A stretch of DNA of 64,000 nucleotides from a virus. The notes under the pieces were generated by a model that worked only from the letters and a program-made list of their open reading frames with translations, ran no database searches and was not told the DNA's origin. The translations under genes were made by a program, and so were the position numbers. The DNA is taken from the IMG/VR virus record IMGVR_UViG_3300027509_000002, positions 1 to 64,000 of that record. One strand, given 5' to 3'. Positions 22,434 through 63,520 of the stretch are shown piece by piece (the stretch's first letter is position 1; each line of letters starts with the position of its first letter).

Positions 22434-23126
22434 TCAAAACTCAAAAACACTACGGGGTTTAAATTCTTTTTCTACACCTGCACCAGCAGATCCACCTCGC
22501 ATTCTATTAATAAAGTACACTAACAGATCTCTAGTGGCATTTACATCGTTCATGGCCTCATGAGCATCAAACTCTTCTAAATTGGCTGCCCTACATGCTT
22601 TTGTGAGACTAAATCCATTTACATTGTCGTCATTTGCCCACAATACTCTAGCTAAAATCATGGTACACACAGAGTCAGGTGCAAAAAACTTCACCATATT
22701 TCCTCTTAACTGCCTAAAACAGTTACCTCCTGATATATGTTTGCTTAAATCTTCATTTACATGAGCAAAGGCATATGATAAAAATCCAATATCAAATTGC
22801 ACATTATGCCCCACAAGTACAGGCTTTTTCATCTTCGCCCCACATTCTTTAATCTGCTTAAAAATGGCTTGGATGTCCTTCACTACTTCCCCTATGTGCT
22901 TACCCTTCATTAAATCAGCAAGATTAGTATTGGTGTAATCCAATGCCTTTTGTTCACATACTAGATTATCGTATGGAATAACATATGTGCTGTATTCAGC
23001 AACAGTTTTAAAGTCTACTGAATTAATTGTTTTTACAGCTATTTGTGTAATCGGATTCTTATTTGAATCAAGCCCACCAGTTTCAACGTCAAAAATGATA
23101 AAATTATTTGCTTTTCCTAAATCCAT
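22434..23126 (-). CDS. DnaQ-like DEDDh 3'-5' exonuclease
   Basis: ExoI FIIFDVETGGLD, ExoII GHNVQFDIGFL, ExoIII HEAMNDVNAT. Confidence 0.85.
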   Translation of the reverse strand: MDLGKANNFIIFDVETGGLDSNKNPITQIAVKTINSVDFKTVAEYSTYVIPYDNLVCEQKALDYTNTNLADLMKGKHIGEVVKDIQAIFKQIKECGAKMKKPVLVGHNVQFDIGFLSYAFAHVNEDLSKHISGGNCFRQLRGNMVKFFAPDSVCTMILARVLWANDDNVNGFSLTKACRAANLEEFDAHEAMNDVNATRDLLVYFINRMRGGSAGAGVEKEFKPRSVFEF

Positions 23127-37403: not shown

Positions 37404-38193
37404 AAAATCTGGTATTTATTGCATTAAAAATGTAATAAATGGAAAAATGTATATTGGCAGTGCCACATACATAAGGTCTAGGTGGAATTTACATAGAAAA
37501 CAATTAAAGGAGAATATGCATCATTCTAAAAAACTCCAAAGAGCATGGAAGAAGTATGGCGGTAAAAATTTTTTATTTGAAATATTAGAGTATTGCAAAA
37601 TTGATTTTTTAGTAGAAAGAGAGCAGTATTTTTTAAACAATATTTTAAAAGCAGATGAAGATTCAAGGTATTTTGAAGACTATGGATATAATATTTTGAG
37701 AACCGCTAATTCTCTTTTGGGATTTAAGCATTCAGATGAAACAAAAAAGAAGATGTCTGATGCAAAGATTGGCTATATTCCTTGGAATAAAGGTAAGTCT
37801 GGGTTTACAGTGTTAGATGACACAAAAAGAAAAATAAGCAGCACTTTGAAGGGATATGTAAGACCTTCATTTACCAAAGAACATAGGAAAAAACTTGCCG
37901 AGGCAAATAAAAATAGATCATGCGACAGAAGTGCTATGTCGAAAAAAGGGAATAAAAAACGAATGTCAAATCCCAAATTTCTGAAACATTTAGAAAACCT
38001 AGTGACTATGGCAACAAGTGCAAAACAAAAAATAGTTTGGAAAATTGATCCATTAACTAATAAAGTGGTGGAGCAATTTGATTCAATCAATGAAGCAGGA
38101 GAGTCTATTAATAAGGGTGCTCGCAAATATATACGAATTTCGTCTCGAAAAAAGACGACATATAAGGGGTTTTTATGGAAAATAGAGAGTTAG
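37381..38193 (+). CDS. GIY-YIG homing endonuclease with NUMOD3 repeats
   Basis: GIYCIKNVINGKMYIGSATYIRSRWNLHRKQL, then HSDETKKKMSDAKIGYIPWNKGKSG. Start at ATG 37381. Confidence 0.85.
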   Translation: MKIEEKDKKSGIYCIKNVINGKMYIGSATYIRSRWNLHRKQLKENMHHSKKLQRAWKKYGGKNFLFEILEYCKIDFLVEREQYFLNNILKADEDSRYFEDYGYNILRTANSLLGFKHSDETKKKMSDAKIGYIPWNKGKSGFTVLDDTKRKISSTLKGYVRPSFTKEHRKKLAEANKNRSCDRSAMSKKGNKKRMSNPKFLKHLENLVTMATSAKQKIVWKIDPLTNKVVEQFDSINEAGESINKGARKYIRISSRKKTTYKGFLWKIES

Positions 38194-38927
38194 TTGATGT
38201 GGTTTTTAAACTTGGTATTGGGTCAAATTATGCAGATAGGGAGCTAAGATATGCTCTTAGGAGTCTATATCATTTTAAGGACTTAGGAAAGGTTTTTGTT
38301 GTTGGACATAAACCAAGTTGGTTAAATGATGAGAAGGTGATACATATTCCAGCCACCGATCCCTACAAAGCCTCAAAAGATTGTAATTTAATCAATAAGC
38401 TCATATTGGCATCAGTACATCCTGAATTGTCAGATCAGTTTCTTAATATGTCTGACGATCAAGTATTTTTAAGAGATATAGATGCATCTTTTTTTATAAA
38501 ACCCATATATGACAATACACCCATGTCCAAAGCATTAGAGCCCAATAAGGTTTTGAATAAATGGCAGAAGAGATTAAGAAATACCAAAAATGCTTTAGTT
38601 AAGAATCATTACAGTTATAATTGCTATGAAACCCATATGCCCTGTTTGATCAATAAGCATGATTTTATGACAACTATATTTAAATATGATTATGGATTTG
38701 ACATTGGATATGTGGGCAATACTCTGTATTACAATACTTTAAGGGCAAATGGGAGGTCTTTAAGGCCAATAGATCTTATCAGGTTAGGAAAGAAAACGTT
38801 AGCCTCACAGATCATTAGAGAAGCCACTGGAAAAGTCTTTTTGAACTACACCAATAAAGCCATGGATGAAAATCTTTTGAATGCATTAGATCATTTGTTT
38901 CCTAATAAATCAGTATATGAGAAGTAA
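38175..38927 (+). CDS. hypothetical protein, possible sugar/phosphosugar transferase
   Basis: Last gene of the GT island. NMSDDQVFL is a DxD-like motif. No firm family assignment. Confidence 0.25.
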   Translation: MENRELVDVVFKLGIGSNYADRELRYALRSLYHFKDLGKVFVVGHKPSWLNDEKVIHIPATDPYKASKDCNLINKLILASVHPELSDQFLNMSDDQVFLRDIDASFFIKPIYDNTPMSKALEPNKVLNKWQKRLRNTKNALVKNHYSYNCYETHMPCLINKHDFMTTIFKYDYGFDIGYVGNTLYYNTLRANGRSLRPIDLIRLGKKTLASQIIREATGKVFLNYTNKAMDENLLNALDHLFPNKSVYEK

Positions 38928-56367: not shown

Positions 56368-57123
56368 ATGCTCACATTAGTACCAGAAATAATTATTCAC
56401 GACACCATAGAAAAGGTATTAGCAGCCGTCAAGAATGACTTAAATAATACGGTCAAAGAAGAAGATACGATCCTATTTAAGCTATTAGCAGATCAGAAGT
56501 TGGAACGCTACAGTTTATATGAGCAAGCTAAGACAGTGTTTAATAAGGAATCAGATGACGTTAGAAAGATAGCCGTTAATGTTATGTTCAATAGAAACAA
56601 AATGTCATCACCAACTATCCACATAACCCTACCATCAGAAGATGAGGTTACAAAGACATTAGGGTTGGGTATGGGAGAATATGAGTCAGCGTTCTTTTCA
56701 GATGAGGGAGAAAATGCTGGAAAGTATAGAGAAACGTATTCTAAGCGATTTAAGGGTAGTTTTAATGTTGTGATAACCTCAGACAACGTAAATGAGATAA
56801 TATTGATCTATTACGTGCTTAGAGCACTTATCATTGGTGCATTGAATCATTTTTATGGGTATTGTATGTATAACTTTCATTTAGGAGGTCGAGACATGAT
56901 GCTTAATCCAGATTTAGTGCCAAAGCATATATTCATGAGATCATTAACCATTAGTTTTGAGTATAATACAGGAGCAGTAAGTTTACATGCGAATGAATTC
57001 TTTAATGGGTGTTTAAGCACCGTAACAGGTGAAATAGATGCAGAGGCTACCAATGGCGTTCCATTTCCAGTAGTAGAACCAGATGTAGATCCAGAAGATG
57101 AAGCTCACTGTGATCCTGAGTAA
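56368..57123 (+). CDS. hypothetical structural protein
   Basis: ORF track. Last gene before the tandem terminator hairpins. Confidence 0.4.
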   Translation: MLTLVPEIIIHDTIEKVLAAVKNDLNNTVKEEDTILFKLLADQKLERYSLYEQAKTVFNKESDDVRKIAVNVMFNRNKMSSPTIHITLPSEDEVTKTLGLGMGEYESAFFSDEGENAGKYRETYSKRFKGSFNVVITSDNVNEIILIYYVLRALIIGALNHFYGYCMYNFHLGGRDMMLNPDLVPKHIFMRSLTISFEYNTGAVSLHANEFFNGCLSTVTGEIDAEATNGVPFPVVEPDVDPEDEAHCDPE

Positions 57124-59671: not shown

Positions 59672-60084
59672 ATAACAAAGAAAAAAGAATAAAGTACTTA
59701 GAATTAAAATTAGACGCCATCTGTGATCATTTGAGGCTTTACGTAACACAAAAGTCATTAATGAGTGATGAGTTCACAGTAATTGAGCGACCTGAAATAG
59801 AAGAATTTGATTTGTCAGCACTGAAAGGCTATGGAGAATGTAATTTATCGGATGGGTTTGATTTAAGTGGGTTGCCACAAAAAATAGAATGGAAGGTAGG
59901 AGAAAAGGTTTGGGATTTTGTTTATGGTTGGGGGGTTGTTGATTATTTAGCAAAACAATCAAATTATATTGAAGTTGACTTTGAAAGTGAATGCACTTCT
60001 ACATCCTATGAACTTAATGGAAATATGATAGGAGCAACAAACAGAACCCTATTCAAAAAAGAAATGAAATTAGTTGAGAAATGA
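59668..60084 (+). CDS. hypothetical protein
   Basis: ORF track. Confidence 0.5.
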   Translation: MNNKEKRIKYLELKLDAICDHLRLYVTQKSLMSDEFTVIERPEIEEFDLSALKGYGECNLSDGFDLSGLPQKIEWKVGEKVWDFVYGWGVVDYLAKQSNYIEVDFESECTSTSYELNGNMIGATNRTLFKKEMKLVEK

Positions 60085-60539
60085 AAGACATCAAATACTG
60101 GAAAGAAAACGCAGAAGAGGATTATCGAACAACGCCAATAAGCGTATTGAAATATATCACGAAGCTAGAGTCATTGGTTAATGATAGAAACTCTAAGATA
60201 TTGAATTGGTGGTCTAAGACAAGAGATGAGGTGTTTAGTGAGCACATGGAAAGATTCAAGAGTCTAAAGCCAGTGCATATTCCTCAATGCGATAACGAGA
60301 ATCCAATGAGCTATGATATAGAAGAGGCACGAAAAATGATGCTAAAGCCATATAGATGTATAGGATGTAGAGGTGTATTGAGTGCAACAGATGAGCAAAG
60401 GGCTACGGGGTTTATAATAGGAAATCCAAATATAGGACAGAATCAGGTTACAGCAGTCTGTACATGTCCAGAGCCATTTTTAACACATGAAGATTGGTAT
60501 AAATATTTAGATAAAATGACAGATGGAAAAACAATATAG
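60081..60539 (+). CDS. hypothetical protein
   Basis: ORF track. Cys motifs at CIGCRG and CTCPEP. Confidence 0.5.
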   Translation: MKDIKYWKENAEEDYRTTPISVLKYITKLESLVNDRNSKILNWWSKTRDEVFSEHMERFKSLKPVHIPQCDNENPMSYDIEEARKMMLKPYRCIGCRGVLSATDEQRATGFIIGNPNIGQNQVTAVCTCPEPFLTHEDWYKYLDKMTDGKTI

Positions 60540-60543
60540 AGTA

Positions 60544-60663
60544 ATGCTTTTTATGGACGACACATATCAAGTAATAAACACGATAGATAATTCAACAGCT
60601 TTTCAGGGCAGTTTATCAGACTGCAATGCATGGTTACAGTTAAACGATAAAGGATATATATGA
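60544..60663 (+). CDS. 39-aa peptide (below ORF-track cutoff)
   Basis: Product is MLFMDDTYQVINTIDNSTAFQGSLSDCNAWLQLNDKGYI. It fills a gap and is ATGA-coupled to the next ORF. Confidence 0.35.
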   Translation: MLFMDDTYQVINTIDNSTAFQGSLSDCNAWLQLNDKGYI

Positions 60664-60926
60664 GCCAGTGTAATCACAGAATAGGAGAGTTTGACGACAT
60701 GGATTTATATGTGGATAACTATATAATATTATTGAAGGAGGGTGCTTGCATGAATGCAGGAATAAATGAAGTATATAAGCATACTGCTTTTAAAAAGAGT
60801 ACAGAAGATCCATTAGAGTTCATGGATGGTAGGTTAGGGTATATAATTAGAAACAACTATTGCCCCAATTGCGGAGAAAAGCTAAATTGGAAAACATTAA
60901 AACAAAAGCTACAGGAGTCGTTATGA
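60660..60926 (+). CDS. hypothetical zinc-ribbon protein
   Basis: ORF track. An N-terminal Cys plus CPNCGEK. Confidence 0.45.
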   Translation: MSQCNHRIGEFDDMDLYVDNYIILLKEGACMNAGINEVYKHTAFKKSTEDPLEFMDGRLGYIIRNNYCPNCGEKLNWKTLKQKLQESL

Positions 60927-61144
60927 GCAAAAAACATTCAGATTTAGAAATAGCACACTTTAAGTCATTTACAATACATGAAAAAATGGACGTATTTGTT
61001 GATTTAAAGCGAGAGGGGAAATTTACAAAGCGTAAAAACAACGAACTGCTAATCAATGGAGTGGTAACAGAGCTGATTGAAGATTATTCATTTTTGTTAA
61101 ATTTCTTTAAATCAGAAAAGGAAAAACAAAATGATCCAGTGTGA
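60923..61144 (+). CDS. hypothetical protein
   Basis: Start moved to ATG 60923 (MSKKHSD), ATGA-coupled to the previous stop. Confidence 0.4.
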   Translation: MSKKHSDLEIAHFKSFTIHEKMDVFVDLKREGKFTKRKNNELLINGVVTELIEDYSFLLNFFKSEKEKQNDPV

Positions 61145-61568
61145 CAAGTGCGGTAAGATACATGGTACAATAGAAGAAGCTCAAAAGGGCTATAAGATGG
61201 CGGATGGTGGCATTGTTAAGGGTATATCCAAGGCATCCGTTGTTCCAGTGTGCCAATGTGCATTAGATGTCGGTACAAAGAACATGCAGAAAATAGAGTC
61301 TATCCATCAAGATAGATTGAGCATGAAGGCATCTATGGATAACTATAAGAATAAGCGAAGCAAGTCCGATTTCACCAATGAAGACGATTATTCTAAATTC
61401 AGAGCTTATGAAGTAGTAATAGAAAGCAATGCTAGGGACATACATGAGCTACAAAAGGACTTAATGGTATCTAAGGAACATATTGCCACATTAGAAGAGA
61501 AAGTGTCTTATTTAACGTGGTTTGCGTTTTTAGCATCACTAGCTTTGTTATTTTTGGTACTGTATTGA
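61131..61568 (+). CDS. tail-anchored membrane protein
   Basis: N-terminal CDKCGK. C-terminal TM LTWFAFLASLALLFLVLY. Confidence 0.45.
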   Translation: MIQCDKCGKIHGTIEEAQKGYKMADGGIVKGISKASVVPVCQCALDVGTKNMQKIESIHQDRLSMKASMDNYKNKRSKSDFTNEDDYSKFRAYEVVIESNARDIHELQKDLMVSKEHIATLEEKVSYLTWFAFLASLALLFLVLY

Positions 61569-61589
61569 AATAATCTGTATATTTGAGAC

Positions 61590-62105
61590 ATGGAAACAGT
61601 AAAAGATGAATTAAGCAGAAACAGCAGAGCAGTAATTAATGCACATGCAGCAGGATATAAAGTAACCAAGGAAGGAGAACTAATATCTTCTACAGGGGTT
61701 CAACGAGTATGTAAAGAAGCAGGTAGAGGAAATCACCTATATAAAGAAATATCTTTCAGAGTAGATGGCAAGCATGCAAGACTTAGGGTGCATAGGTTGC
61801 AAGCATTCCAGAAGTTTGGAATGAAAATGTTTGAAAAAGGTATGGTTGTAAGACACCTAAACGGCAATCCATTGGATAATTCGTTTGACAATATTGCCAT
61901 TGGCACTGCTAGTGAAAACATGATGGACAGACCACAGGCGGTAAGACAGGCTCATGCAGAACATGCAGCATCTTTTAACACTAAACATGCACATGAATCG
62001 GTATATGCATACTACTGCGGTGTTAGGTCATATAAAAAAACAATGGAGAAATTCAATATTTCAAGTAAAGGAACATTGAATCATATCATTAAGAAATTTA
62101 AGTAA
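61590..62105 (+). CDS. HNH (HNH_3-type) homing endonuclease
   Basis: RLRVHRLQAFQKFG..VVRHLNGNPLDNSFDNIAIGTASENMMD gives the H-N-N/H motif. Confidence 0.75.
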   Translation: METVKDELSRNSRAVINAHAAGYKVTKEGELISSTGVQRVCKEAGRGNHLYKEISFRVDGKHARLRVHRLQAFQKFGMKMFEKGMVVRHLNGNPLDNSFDNIAIGTASENMMDRPQAVRQAHAEHAASFNTKHAHESVYAYYCGVRSYKKTMEKFNISSKGTLNHIIKKFK

Positions 62106-62111
62106 AGATAT

Positions 62112-62256
62112 AATCAAATGGTGGAATTGGTAGACACTGAGTTAGAGAGAGGAAAGACCGCATGTATTAAGGTTTGAAACTTTACCTTACTAACAATATG
62201 TTTTGCACTGAAATACATTAAGTGTAAGATTGTAGGTTCGAGTCCTACTTTGATTA
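62112..62256 (+). tRNA. non-canonical tRNA-like gene (Leu-type D arm, 145 nt)
   Basis: Acceptor AATCAAA/TTTGATT with discriminator A, and U8. D arm GTG-GAATTGGTAGA-CAC. T arm GTAGG-TTCGAGT-CCTAC. There are 94 nt between the D and T arms, and I could find no 5-bp/7-nt anticodon arm by hand. Confidence 0.5.
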
Positions 62257-62294
62257 CAACTGACACCTCCTTTTATCTGGATTGAGTTTTGACT

Positions 62295-62317
62295 GCTAGG
62301 AAAGACTAGCTTTTTTT
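62295..62317 (+). terminator. Rho-independent terminator after the tRNA-like gene
   Basis: GCTAG, loop GAAAGA, CTAGC, then T7. Confidence 0.75.
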
Positions 62318-62333
62318 AACTTTAAACAACACA

Positions 62334-62591
62334 ATGAAATATTTAATTATACCAGCAATACTTTTCAGCCTTAACGCAAAAGCTCAAAGAGTGAGTGATC
62401 CATGCATGTATAATGACTCAGTAGTTTATGTAGATACAGAAGTAGTGTATAATGATACAATACAGCTATCGACTAGAATCTTTAATGACTCAGTGGCATA
62501 CAAAGAGTATATACAAATGCTTATGAGACAGGAAGAGGATGTGATTAAAAATCTATATTATTACAACGGACGGCCAATTATGGCTCATTAA
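62334..62591 (+). CDS. small secreted protein
   Basis: Signal peptide MKYLIIPAILFSLNAKAQ. Confidence 0.5.
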   Translation: MKYLIIPAILFSLNAKAQRVSDPCMYNDSVVYVDTEVVYNDTIQLSTRIFNDSVAYKEYIQMLMRQEEDVIKNLYYYNGRPIMAH

Positions 62592-62892
62592 CATTGTTCT
62601 TTTGGGCCAGTAAGGCATGCAGTACTGGTGAATCATAGTGGCCATTGACACCAACTTCAATCACATATTCTGTATAGTCAGTCCAATATCCTCTAAAAAT
62701 AAAAGTGTCTTCATCATATTGATCAGCAACAAACGAAATACTATAAGGATCAAAAGTCTCTTCAATCATTAATCTGTTTCCATCTTCTAAGTGTACTACA
62801 TGAAAAACAGTATTATCATCAACAACGGTGTGTTGAAATTCTGAAAAATTATTGAAAGTTGCAAGCATCATCATTACTAAAAGGCTATCCAT
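62578..62892 (-). CDS. hypothetical protein (lone minus-strand ORF)
   Basis: ORF track. Converges on 62334-62591 with a 14-nt overlap. Confidence 0.4.
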   Translation of the reverse strand: MDSLLVMMMLATFNNFSEFQHTVVDDNTVFHVVHLEDGNRLMIEETFDPYSISFVADQYDEDTFIFRGYWTDYTEYVIEVGVNGHYDSPVLHALLAQKNNVNEP

Positions 62893-62955
62893 GGTATTAT
62901 GGTTTATTTGGTTTATATTAGTCTTACACGTAAAACAAAGATAAAAGGTTACATT

Positions 62956-63138
62956 ATGATAAGCAAAATTTTCTGGAATATATTCGCATCCCTCACCACA
63001 TTATTTGTCGTTTACCTTGTTTTGGCTTTTGTAGCTGGAACAATTGATTGCTTGGATTGGAATATATGGGTCAGGCTTGCATATGCTTTTGTATTTTTAA
63101 GAGTTGTATTTGTATTCGTAACAAGTGTAGCAGAGTAG
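62956..63138 (+). CDS. small two-TM membrane protein
   Basis: Start moved to ATG 62956. Product starts MISKIFWNIFASLTTLFVVYLVLAFVAG, and RLAYAFVFLRVVFVFV follows. Confidence 0.45.
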   Translation: MISKIFWNIFASLTTLFVVYLVLAFVAGTIDCLDWNIWVRLAYAFVFLRVVFVFVTSVAE

Positions 63139-63140
63139 AT

Positions 63141-63470
63141 ATGAAGAACGCAAGACTATATGTACCAAAGATACAGTCGCTATATGCGATATTCTTTGAC
63201 GGTAAGAATGAAAAGGAGCTGATCGAGTTTGTAGGTGAATACCATGACATTGTTCGTGCAGAGATGGCAGATATTAAAAAATTGATGTTTCTGGATGCTG
63301 ATGACAAATTAATAGCAGTGGCACTGGAAGGGTGCTATACCATTAAGCATATGCACGGTCAATTTGAAATGATGGGTGAACAAGAATTCAAAAGTAGATA
63401 CGAGATAGTGCCTACGTGGGATGATCTAAGAAATAATTTATTTAGGGCAGAGCATAATGTATATGTGTAA
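63141..63470 (+). CDS. hypothetical protein
   Basis: Start moved to ATG 63141 (MKNARLYV), 2 nt after the previous stop. Confidence 0.45.
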   Translation: MKNARLYVPKIQSLYAIFFDGKNEKELIEFVGEYHDIVRAEMADIKKLMFLDADDKLIAVALEGCYTIKHMHGQFEMMGEQEFKSRYEIVPTWDDLRNNLFRAEHNVYV

Positions 63471-63520
63471 AATTGATAAATACATATTAATGTATTAACT
63501 TTGAAGCAAAATTTAACACA

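Follow-up and report, generated by a model that had tools for sequence, protein, structure and literature searches.

Can a phage gene be a transfer RNA (tRNA) gene in all its outer parts and have no part that reads a codon? This question is raised by a 64,000-nucleotide (nt) stretch of viral DNA (IMG/VR record IMGVR_UViG_3300027509_000002, positions 1 to 64,000; hereafter the window), in which positions 62112-62256 of the plus strand form a 145-nt gene resembling a leucine tRNA (tRNA-Leu). We give a probability of about one half to the reading that this locus encodes a non-decoding, tRNA-Leu-derived stable RNA, in which the anticodon and variable arms would have been replaced by a 94-nt, two-armed structured filler.

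Each element of the gene can be read at defined coordinates. The 5′ strand of the acceptor stem, AATCAAA (62112-62118), forms Watson-Crick pairs at 7 of 7 positions with TTTGATT (62249-62255), which is followed by the discriminator A73 (62256); CCA is not encoded, and CAA comes next. U8 (T8 at 62119) and G9 lead into a tRNA-Leu-type D arm, GTG-GAATTGGTAGA-CAC (62121-62137), and at the far end U48 (62231), the partner of A15 in the Levitt pair, adjoins the T arm GTAGG-TTCGAGT-CCTAC (62232-62248), which aligned to the T arm of the Rfam tRNA model in a partial match. The spacing between the D and T arms is exactly 94 nt (62138-62231). A preliminary description of this DNA had listed the perfect acceptor, U8, the Leu-type D arm, the consensus T arm, A73 and the 94-nt gap, and our reading agrees with it base for base.

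The frame is intact at all 51 positions (acceptor 7/7, D stem 3/3, T stem 5/5, U8, A14/A15, G18G19, U48, the T loop and A73), and its components, the 7-base-pair (bp) acceptor, the D arm with G18G19, the T arm with its TΨC loop and the discriminator, have the same form as in the canonical tRNA-Leu genes of the loci that we fetched. A search for the D-arm 19-mer TGGTGGAATTGGTAGACAC that tolerated up to 3 mismatches gave a single match in the window and none in 100 shuffles, and of the two T-arm-like hairpins in the 64 kb only that of the 62112-62256 gene has a complementary acceptor partner; the tRNA frame at this locus is thus far beyond chance. The D-loop string GGAATTGGTAGA was present in 17 of 37 canonical tRNA-Leu genes and in 1 of 217 other canonical tRNA genes among the fetched loci, a comparison by which the D loop is Leu-specific. 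Furthermore, the AATCAAA/TTTGATT acceptor is A/U-rich, in a genome of 34% GC, yet perfectly paired, which argues for long residence under selection for pairing.

The region between the D and T arms has a different character. In the position of the anticodon arm lies arm 1 (62138-62199, plus strand), which consists of a TGA linker, the helix GTTAG (62141-45)/CTAAC (62190-94), which closes a 54-nt arm and was absent from the helices listed earlier, and an AATAT linker; the helix has a probability of 0.64, and the fold of the roughly 44 nt that it encloses is uncertain. Arm 1 also holds a purine tract, AGAGAGAGGAAAGAC, for which no antisense targets were found within the window. In the position of the variable arm lies hairpin H2 (62200-62230), with a 10-bp stem, GTTTTGCACT/AGTGTAAGAT, that includes G-U pairs, and an 11-nt loop, GAAATACATTA; its predicted pair probability is about 1.0, and it ends 1 nt before the T stem. 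In the unconstrained ensemble the cloverleaf frame forms with pair probabilities of 0.58-0.89 for the acceptor, 0.83 for the D stem and 0.75 for the T stem, and the 94-nt insert taken alone is more structured than its shuffles (z = -2.77). Three helices had previously been folded by hand, and all three occur at the places given for them: TGCACT/AGTGTA stood and extends to the 10-bp stem of H2, while TAAGGT/ACCTTA has a probability of about 0.1 in the ensemble and GAGTT/AACTT of 0. The related claim that the insert holds no 5-bp stem with a 7-nt U33 loop was not strictly right, since TAAGG-TTTGAAA-CTTTA (62168-62184), within arm 1, has a 5-bp stem and a 7-nt loop with U at loop position 2. This hairpin is nevertheless very weak (-0.2 kcal/mol, probability 0.01) and misplaced, 30 nt past the D stem and 47 nt short of the T stem. 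We also observed that AUGUAUU (62162-62168, arm 1) is perfectly complementary to AAUACAU (62212-62218, H2 loop), with a predicted duplex energy of -3.6 kcal/mol, a match that alone is not statistically significant; a pseudoknot or kissing contact between the two is possible.

Standard tools do not recover the gene. ARAGORN in its default mode reported 0 genes and Rfam at the gathering threshold 0 matches, the best score for the Rfam tRNA model (RF00005) being 18.2 bits, from the 3′ part only, against a cut-off of 29. The gene has no canonical anticodon arm, that is, a 5-bp stem with a 7-nt U33/R37 loop placed 1 nt past the D stem in a total of about 72-93 nt. To ask whether such an arm could be restored by removing an insert, we deleted every contiguous segment of the 94-nt middle and required a 5-bp stem, a 7-nt U33/R37 loop and an acceptable variable region. 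This exhaustive search gave 0 strict solutions for the window insert, and relaxed rules gave 4 poor solutions with 4/5 bp, whereas the same test resolved every locus that we assigned to the intron-bearing group described below as class A. The earlier suggestion of an unusual insertion or intron is therefore unsupported for this copy, as no single excision yields a canonical anticodon arm. The ARAGORN intron search called a tRNA-His(atg) with a 53-nt intron, which we rejected, as its anticodon stem contains 2 non-pairs; ARAGORN runs on about 5,000 deletion variants were uninformative, as the perfect outer arms let almost any middle pass.

Other identities were considered as well. With E values up to 10, an Rfam search of 61900-62500 gave no group I intron (Intron_gpI), ribozyme, transfer-messenger RNA (tmRNA) or Y-RNA-like match in the insert, and with E up to 0.5 no ribozyme, intron, tmRNA or Y-RNA-like match was found inside any insert of 20 related loci. 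The catalytic core of a group I intron typically takes about 200 nt or more, and the excess here is only about 60 nt; the view that it is too short for such an intron thus holds. A tmRNA was ruled out, as the third acceptor pair is U3-A70 and not G3-U70, ARAGORN -m finds none and there is no Rfam tmRNA match, and a phage attachment site (attP) was ruled out, as 5′ and 3′ tRNA parts are both present and complementary. Among transposon signatures, no flanking direct repeats were found at the locus, and the sole terminal inverted repeat is the acceptor stem. An open reading frame (ORF) on the minus strand (62114-62266, 50 amino acids, GTG start) exactly overlies the RNA gene and was regarded as spurious.

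The window element is one of a class of such frames. A first scan with the pattern GGAATTGGTAGACAC-N(70-110)-GGTTCGAGTCC returned 21 loci in IMG/VR, 50 in metagenomes and 2 in 185,579 GTDB species genomes; one of the two GTDB matches, from Parabacteroides, has the same sequence as a viral contig of IMG/VR, and the other lies on a contig of a metagenome-assembled genome that carries a phage-like tRNA array. The class is nearly phage-only and nearly absent from cellular genomes. Among 52 pattern-matched families, 33 showed 7/7 acceptor pairing with different, covarying sequences, the remainder being mostly tandem tRNAs, and in those 33 families U8 and U48 were present throughout (33/33 each) and A73 in 29. 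A looser pattern gave at least 119 IMG/VR loci, which together with the earlier scans amount to at least 123 distinct elements (7/7 acceptor, 5/5 T stem) in 96 unrelated insert clusters. These elements fall into two groups. Class A comprises real tRNA-Leu(UAA/CAA) genes, which regain a CUUAAAA or CUCAAAA loop together with a Leu-type variable arm once 35-71 nt are taken out. Class B, which includes the window element and most others, has no recoverable anticodon arm, and typically has a capped stub or a long arm past the D stem and further hairpins before the T stem; its inserts have a mean z of -1.08 relative to shuffles (25 inserts). The features that define the class are all found in the window element: a 7/7 acceptor, U8, the D loop given above, U48, a 5-bp T stem, a TTCRANT loop, usually A73, and a non-canonical middle of 26-100 nt. 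The frame can be aligned across class members, although it is partly fixed by the search patterns, and annotation pipelines either miss these elements or assign them to a tRNA of arbitrary isotype.

Within the class, L037 and L039 are relatives whose variable regions are about 95% identical and in which the hairpin loop at the anticodon position differs (7 vs 8 nt). The heptamers ACATTAA and CATTAAA are enriched in the insert families (seen in 5 of 34, where 0.18-0.35 would be expected, and in none of 200 shuffles; L006, L038, L046, L050, the L004 type, and the window at 62215-62221); over the whole window ACATTAA shows no enrichment, and in class A the motif stems from the CCA|UUAAAA junction. 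An apparent similarity of the window insert to L124 and to a six-member cluster sharing AGGAAAGAC and TTGAAAC did not rise above shuffles and was discarded.

The relation between frame and middle is seen most clearly in a group of elements with an invariant frame, composed of the acceptor AGTCAGG/CCTGACT, the D arm GCGGAATTGGTAGACGC and the T arm ACAGG-TTCGAAT-CCTGT (AGTCAGGTGGCGGAATTGGTAGACGC … ACAGGTTCGAATCCTGTCCTGACTA). The loose scan contained at least 22 of these elements with 19 unrelated inserts, and pairwise comparison of their flanking DNA gave similarity for none of 231 upstream pairs and for 1 of 231 downstream pairs, so that they stand in unrelated contexts. When an exact-frame scan with a shorter gap was pooled with the earlier matches, the group rose to at least 73 distinct elements (L096-L267; for example L223 3374-3449, L227 2116-2207 and L114 2397-2522), whose middles, 26-88 nt long, comprise 71 different sequences in 63 families, none of which forms a canonical anticodon arm. 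They score 38-44 bits as "tRNA" in Rfam, ARAGORN gives them arbitrary isotypes, and the frame was found in none of the cultured phages among 50,697 GenBank records. Since the middles go down to 26 nt, this family does not depend on splicing. It is the frame, and not the middle, that is conserved.

The middles behave as modules. The same insert occurs in different frames in L195/L211 and in L050/L172. Two further loci are of the same kind: in L075, a homologous module of about 55 nt (about 75-80% identity) lies in two side-by-side tRNA frameworks, one Leu-like and the other of a different type (1299-1439 and 1448-1577, both minus strand), and in L076 homologous inserts lie in one Leu-like and one Met-like framework (1921-2061 and 2203-2338, both minus strand). 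The inserts shared within L075 and L076 imply that inserts are modular or mobile between tRNA genes. The hairpin adjoining the T arm differs between L227 and L228 by a compensatory change, from GAGAG/CTCTC to GATAG/CTATC.

What the frame retains can be compared with the rules for recognition by leucyl-tRNA synthetase (LeuRS). The Escherichia coli enzyme requires A73, A15-U48, G18G19, A20a and the D/T corner, whereas the anticodon and the long variable arm are dispensable, and tRNA-Leu without its anticodon arm is still charged (PMC9976931); the preliminary description had stated that LeuRS identity relies on A73 and tertiary elements and not on the anticodon, which matches these rules. The window element has A73, A15-U48, G18G19/A20a and an intact D/T corner (U54-A58, G19-C56), and the LeuRS identity positions are those that stay invariant across the class. 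Because every bacterial LeuRS identity element tested is kept, the element is plausibly leucylated. Of the options raised at the outset, a chargeable tRNA mimic or stable RNA is favoured by the intact Leu-specific frame, which retains the full set of bacterial LeuRS identity elements located outside the anticodon.

In the mechanism that we propose, the RNA would be co-transcribed with the HNH endonuclease gene upstream of it from a Bacteroidota-type promoter near 61.55 kb and would end at a terminator at 62295-62317. RNase P would cut at 62111/62112, the 3′ trailer would be removed after A73, and host enzymes would add CCA as they do for CCA-less tRNA genes, after which the RNA could fold into an L-shape. 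A bacterial LeuRS, which reads A73, A15-U48 and the corner of the D and T loops and not the anticodon or the variable arm, would probably leucylate it; with no anticodon loop at the right distance, the product would not decode on the ribosome. Its function would then lie in the frame, which may titrate or bind LeuRS or other frame-reading enzymes, donate leucine outside translation, act as a decoy for toxins directed at the acceptor end, or serve as a processing handle of the HNH transcript, and the middle would be a poorly constrained spacer or cargo. The anatomy of the gene, its place in a large phage-specific class and its lack of a decodable arm are shown by the sequences; processing, charging and role are inferred.

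Several observations weigh against this reading. The class was gathered with patterns that fix the D loop and the T loop, and is a sample and not a census. No homologue of the window insert was found, the best alignment in 95 comparisons with other insert clusters (z = 3.06) being as expected by chance; hence arm 1 and H2 are without covariation support, and selection on the window copy has no direct evidence and is inferred from the class. The whole molecule has a minimum free energy z of only -1.49, and its A1-U72 pair is atypical for a tRNA. The LeuRS identity rules derive from E. coli and Aquifex and not from Bacteroidota. Class members have no recurrent partner protein, as their 72 flanking ORFs include 2 GIY-YIG proteins, 1 I-HmuI-like protein and 1 RNA ligase, and the 25 larger ORFs of the window phage that were scanned include neither an RNA ligase nor any other RNA enzyme. 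The element is also dispensable for the phage lineage, as the relatives described below lack it. Finally, the rival explanations, namely unrecognised splicing, a relic and a processing signal, jointly keep an appreciable probability.

Much of the evidence for these rivals comes from the genomic setting. The window is part of a 98,979-bp contig from an ENA metagenome assembly. Its phage encodes a portal protein, a terminase, a major head protein, a large DNA polymerase and RecA, and a Bacteroidota host is likely, given the 58.6% identity between its major head protein and the one of Chryseobacterium phage MA9V-3. No DNA-level relatives were found among GenBank phages. The RNA gene sits in an accessory block of small orphan ORFs, and the flanking ORF of 145 amino acids is an orphan. 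Structural-gene relatives with 60% and 51% identity run from the homologue of ORF 56368-57123 straight to the tail genes and lack this region and the tRNA-like gene, and synteny with MA9V-3, the closest GenBank phage, which has no Leu-like element, ends at the same point; a search of IMG/VR through ORF 56368-57123 gave no relative. It had been anticipated that relatives might carry an ordinary tRNA-Leu at this locus and so expose the copy as a pseudogene, a comparison that does not apply, as the closest relatives are without the whole accessory region.

Immediately upstream of the RNA gene lies a free-standing ORF of the homing-endonuclease type (61590-62105, plus strand, 171 amino acids; Pfam HNH_3, E 9.8e-10). 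Both earlier statements about the flanks, that the HNH gene ends 6 nt upstream and that a terminator lies at 62295-62317, hold; the latter is an intrinsic-terminator-like hairpin on the plus strand, GCTAG-GAAAGA-CTAGC followed by T7. On the 5′ side of the HNH start there is a candidate Bacteroidota-type promoter (61540-61585, plus strand) with the -7 motifs TAGCTTTG, TATTTTTG and TATATTTG; within 60000-63500, TAnnTTTG, which we take to be the Bacteroides -7 promoter consensus, occurs in only these three places, and sigma-70-like signals did not exceed those of shuffles. Together with the HNH gene, the RNA gene and the terminator, the candidate promoter looks like part of a single cassette. The HNH protein has 286 homologues, all with 57% identity or less. 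Relatives with 40-51% identity lie beside a permuted tmRNA (L095 959-1355) or tRNA genes (L030/L031 2914-2986, L032 3537-3621), and tRNA or tmRNA genes adjoined the HNH relatives in 4 of about 15 contexts inspected. None of 12 IMG/VR HNH relatives and 3 closer ones has a tRNA-Leu-like element beside it, a few having a tRNA or tmRNA, and no relatives of the window HNH protein flank other class members; the HNH neighbour is not a feature of the class. L032 carries a tRNA-Lys(CUU) with a 35-nt hairpin intron whose loop is ACATTAAC.

Further observations concern the surroundings of the gene. The 9-mer AGGAAAGAC occurs only twice in the 64-kb window (0.53 expected), at 62150-62158 in the insert and, 148 nt away, at 62298-62306 in the loop of the terminator hairpin, and could be a shared protein-binding motif or the trace of a duplication. 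At 62264-62273, 8 nt 3′ of the RNA gene, lies CACCTCCTTT, which on the minus strand reads AAAGGAGGTG and which resembles the 3′ end of 16S ribosomal RNA (the anti-Shine-Dalgarno region). On the same contig, about 1.3-3.1 kb past the end of the window (L088 18945-20756), a response regulator, a PAS/HisKA/HATPase_c histidine kinase and a second response regulator stand in a row and adjoin an AntA/ANT anti-repressor-type gene, that is, a two-component system on a phage. MA9V-3 (L034) encodes a circularly permuted tmRNA of the two-piece type (22766-23124, minus strand) and two aberrant tRNAs on the minus strand at 38402-38490 and 38123-38219, one with a 24-nt "anticodon loop" and the other 97 nt long, with G3-U70 and a CAACGUU loop, annotated as tRNA-Gln.

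The rival that survives best, which we nonetheless consider unlikely, holds that a tRNA-Leu gene was destroyed by an insertion or a recombination event and that the relic, decaying or neutral and itself functionless, travels as baggage with a mobile HNH cassette. The self-contained unit of promoter, HNH gene, RNA and terminator, placed in an accessory block of orphan ORFs that relatives lack, would be expected of such baggage; the HNH relatives beside tRNA or tmRNA genes make co-conversion of flanking RNA genes plausible, and the unmatched insert and the finding of no other tRNA in about 67 kb of this phage point the same way. A relic would, however, have to have kept all 51 frame positions intact while its middle bears no tRNA resemblance, and the perfectly paired acceptor shares the A/U-rich composition of the phage, where a host gene captured recently would be GC-rich. 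An intact, covarying frame around a non-tRNA middle is seen in dozens of independent elements, and the window insert exceeds its shuffles in structure, which also argues against decay.

A second alternative, which we judge rather improbable, is that the element serves as tRNA "punctuation", in which RNase P/Z cleavage sets the 3′ end of the HNH messenger RNA (mRNA) and controls expression of the endonuclease, or at other loci frees a downstream mRNA, with no trans-acting RNA involved. This would be consistent with an element that begins 6 nt past the end of the HNH reading frame and lacks a separate promoter motif, and with a class in which the conserved features are those of the frame only, as read by RNase P/Z, while the middle varies freely. 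In addition, an ATG lies 5-40 nt downstream on the same strand in about half of the 22 AGTCAGG-frame loci, an association seen by eye. Nevertheless, the Leu-specific D-loop nucleotides, U48 and A73 are not needed for RNase P/Z, the window element is followed by a terminator and not by a cistron, and many class members are located inside ordinary tRNA arrays.

The third alternative is an interrupted gene of the "enigmatic phage tRNA intron" kind, in which one or more small inserts would be cut out by host RNase P/Z-type enzymes or some other endonuclease and the ends joined by a ligase, giving a decoding tRNA, for example a tRNA-Leu or one with a UUUGAAA loop (anticodon UGA). Such genes exist elsewhere, as class A comprises genuine tRNA-Leu(UAA/CAA) genes with inserts of 35-71 nt in other phages (L004, L011, L044, L086, L005, L020, L061, L071 and L077). 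Several of their introns, of 49-71 nt, are themselves tRNA-like (L004 1327-1459, minus strand; L011 7383-7516, plus strand; L044; L086 864-998, minus strand; L020 1697-1845 and L005 1617-1769, both plus strand; L061; L071). Those of L004, L011, L044 and L086 start with G and have a 7-8-bp acceptor-like stem that covaries between loci, and several stop exactly at N73 or N73-CCA before the 3′ exon (ACCA|TTAAAA, ACCA|AAAA, TCCA|AAAA, GCCA|AAAA); the L005 intron ends at the discriminator without CCA, L061 and L071 fit less exactly, and the L020 intron is a whole mini-tRNA including D and T arms. The point of insertion varies (32/33 or 34/35), and the exon junction is always canonical. These features suggest that RNase P and a cut of the RNase Z type release class A introns, after which a ligase would close the nicked anticodon loop.

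Oversized tRNA genes are also known from the Lak megaphages of Prevotella, whose "pseudo-tRNAs" contain conserved "enigmatic introns" that belong to no Rfam class and are removed by an unexplained mechanism, one of these introns being tRNA-like (Devoto et al., 10.1101/356790; PMC6784885). Like the window phage, these are Bacteroidota phages with tRNA genes substantially longer than normal; class A loci reproduce and extend this observation, and by analogy the Lak introns may be the same as those of class A. The Lak genes differ, going by their published description, in that an anticodon results from the excision points predicted for their inserts, which were interpreted as introns, whereas the window gene yields no anticodon arm by any single excision. 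Two details of the window would suit an interrupted gene: the 62168-62184 hairpin has U33- and A37-like positions, and a possible nested acceptor, AGAGAGG/CCTTACT, abuts it. This is the only such candidate, with 6 of 7 pairs, found by hand inspection with about 0.3 expected by chance, and the remaining exons form no arm. Furthermore, unlike true introns, the insert lacks both a CCA and an acceptor-like stem that would end where an exon junction is plausible, and the hairpin is far too weak in the predicted ensemble. Together with the outcome of the deletion search, the larger ORFs scanned, among which there was no RNA ligase, and the frames with middles down to 26 nt that also lack an anticodon arm and point to a class independent of splicing, these results leave the intron reading disfavoured for the window copy, and we rank it as slightly less probable again than punctuation. 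A decoy for anticodon nucleases, which had also been proposed, is unlikely because no anticodon loop is presented.

A non-decoding, tRNA-Leu-derived RNA would have partial precedents. T4 species 1 RNA (rnaC, neighbour of rnaD) is, like the predicted window RNA, a stable phage RNA of about 140 nt, encoded in the tRNA region beside a homing endonuclease gene, segB, and its order of arms (terminal stem, long arm, hairpin of about 10 bp, T arm CCGGG-TTCGAAT-CCCGG) is the order predicted for the window element. The analogy with rnaC, drawn earlier, holds for the architecture; there is no sequence similarity, and rnaC, from an E. coli phage with a full tRNA array, has no D arm and an imperfect terminal stem, whereas the window element keeps a complete Leu-type frame. 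The tRNA-like domain of tmRNA likewise places an acceptor stem and T arm around a large non-tRNA insert, and tmRNA is aminoacylated without an anticodon; it differs in having G3-U70 (alanine identity), no D stem, pseudoknots, a tag ORF and more than 250 nt, compared with U3-A70, a full Leu-type D arm and 145 nt in the window element. tmRNAs are encoded by the related phages MA9V-3, L095 and L240, and in L240 (1454-1826) the tmRNA lies 150 nt from an AGTCAGG-frame element. The precedents of T4 species 1 RNA and the Lak oversized tRNAs are known and unexplained, and the class is not categorically new.

The design also has artificial parallels. Ponchon and Dardel reportedly found that foreign RNAs put in place of the tRNA anticodon arm are processed and stabilised in bacteria. 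A laboratory tRNA-Leu without its anticodon and variable arms is described as still leucylated if A73 and the D/T corner are intact (Larkin et al. 2002, as cited in PMC9976931). The minimalist tRNA-Leu and the engineered tRNA scaffolds (PMC3753655) are artificial constructs with the same design as the natural element in the window. Our literature search, incomplete in its coverage, found no description of a natural, widespread counterpart of the engineered scaffolds or of anticodon-less tRNA-Leu frames with hypervariable middles. This leads to a broader and tentative proposal, to which we give more weight than to any single rival while still regarding it as doubtful: that a large family of tRNA-Leu chassis, leucylatable and devoid of an anticodon, is encoded by phages and above all by those of Bacteroidota, each chassis carrying a freely exchangeable RNA module. 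This natural "tRNA scaffold" would engage RNase P/Z, the CCA-adding enzyme and LeuRS outside decoding, and the window element would be one divergent member. Possible purposes of such a scaffold are the titration or reprogramming of LeuRS, the supply of Leu-tRNA to non-ribosomal transferases, and the sequestration of defence toxins directed against the acceptor ends of tRNA.

Codon supply is the usual explanation for phage tRNA genes, joined lately by evasion of anticodon nucleases, and an RNA without a codon-reading part fits neither. On its own the single locus is modest evidence, and it opens onto a large phage-specific RNA class. If only processing signals or relics are involved, tRNA counts and codon-usage inferences in phage genomics would have to be corrected. 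If these RNAs are charged, they might also help to account for T4 species 1 RNA, a puzzle since the 1970s, and for the oversized "enigmatic" tRNAs found in megaphages; they would be natural minimalist tRNA-Leu molecules with a non-translational use, and thus a new route by which viruses engage the translation apparatus of their hosts.

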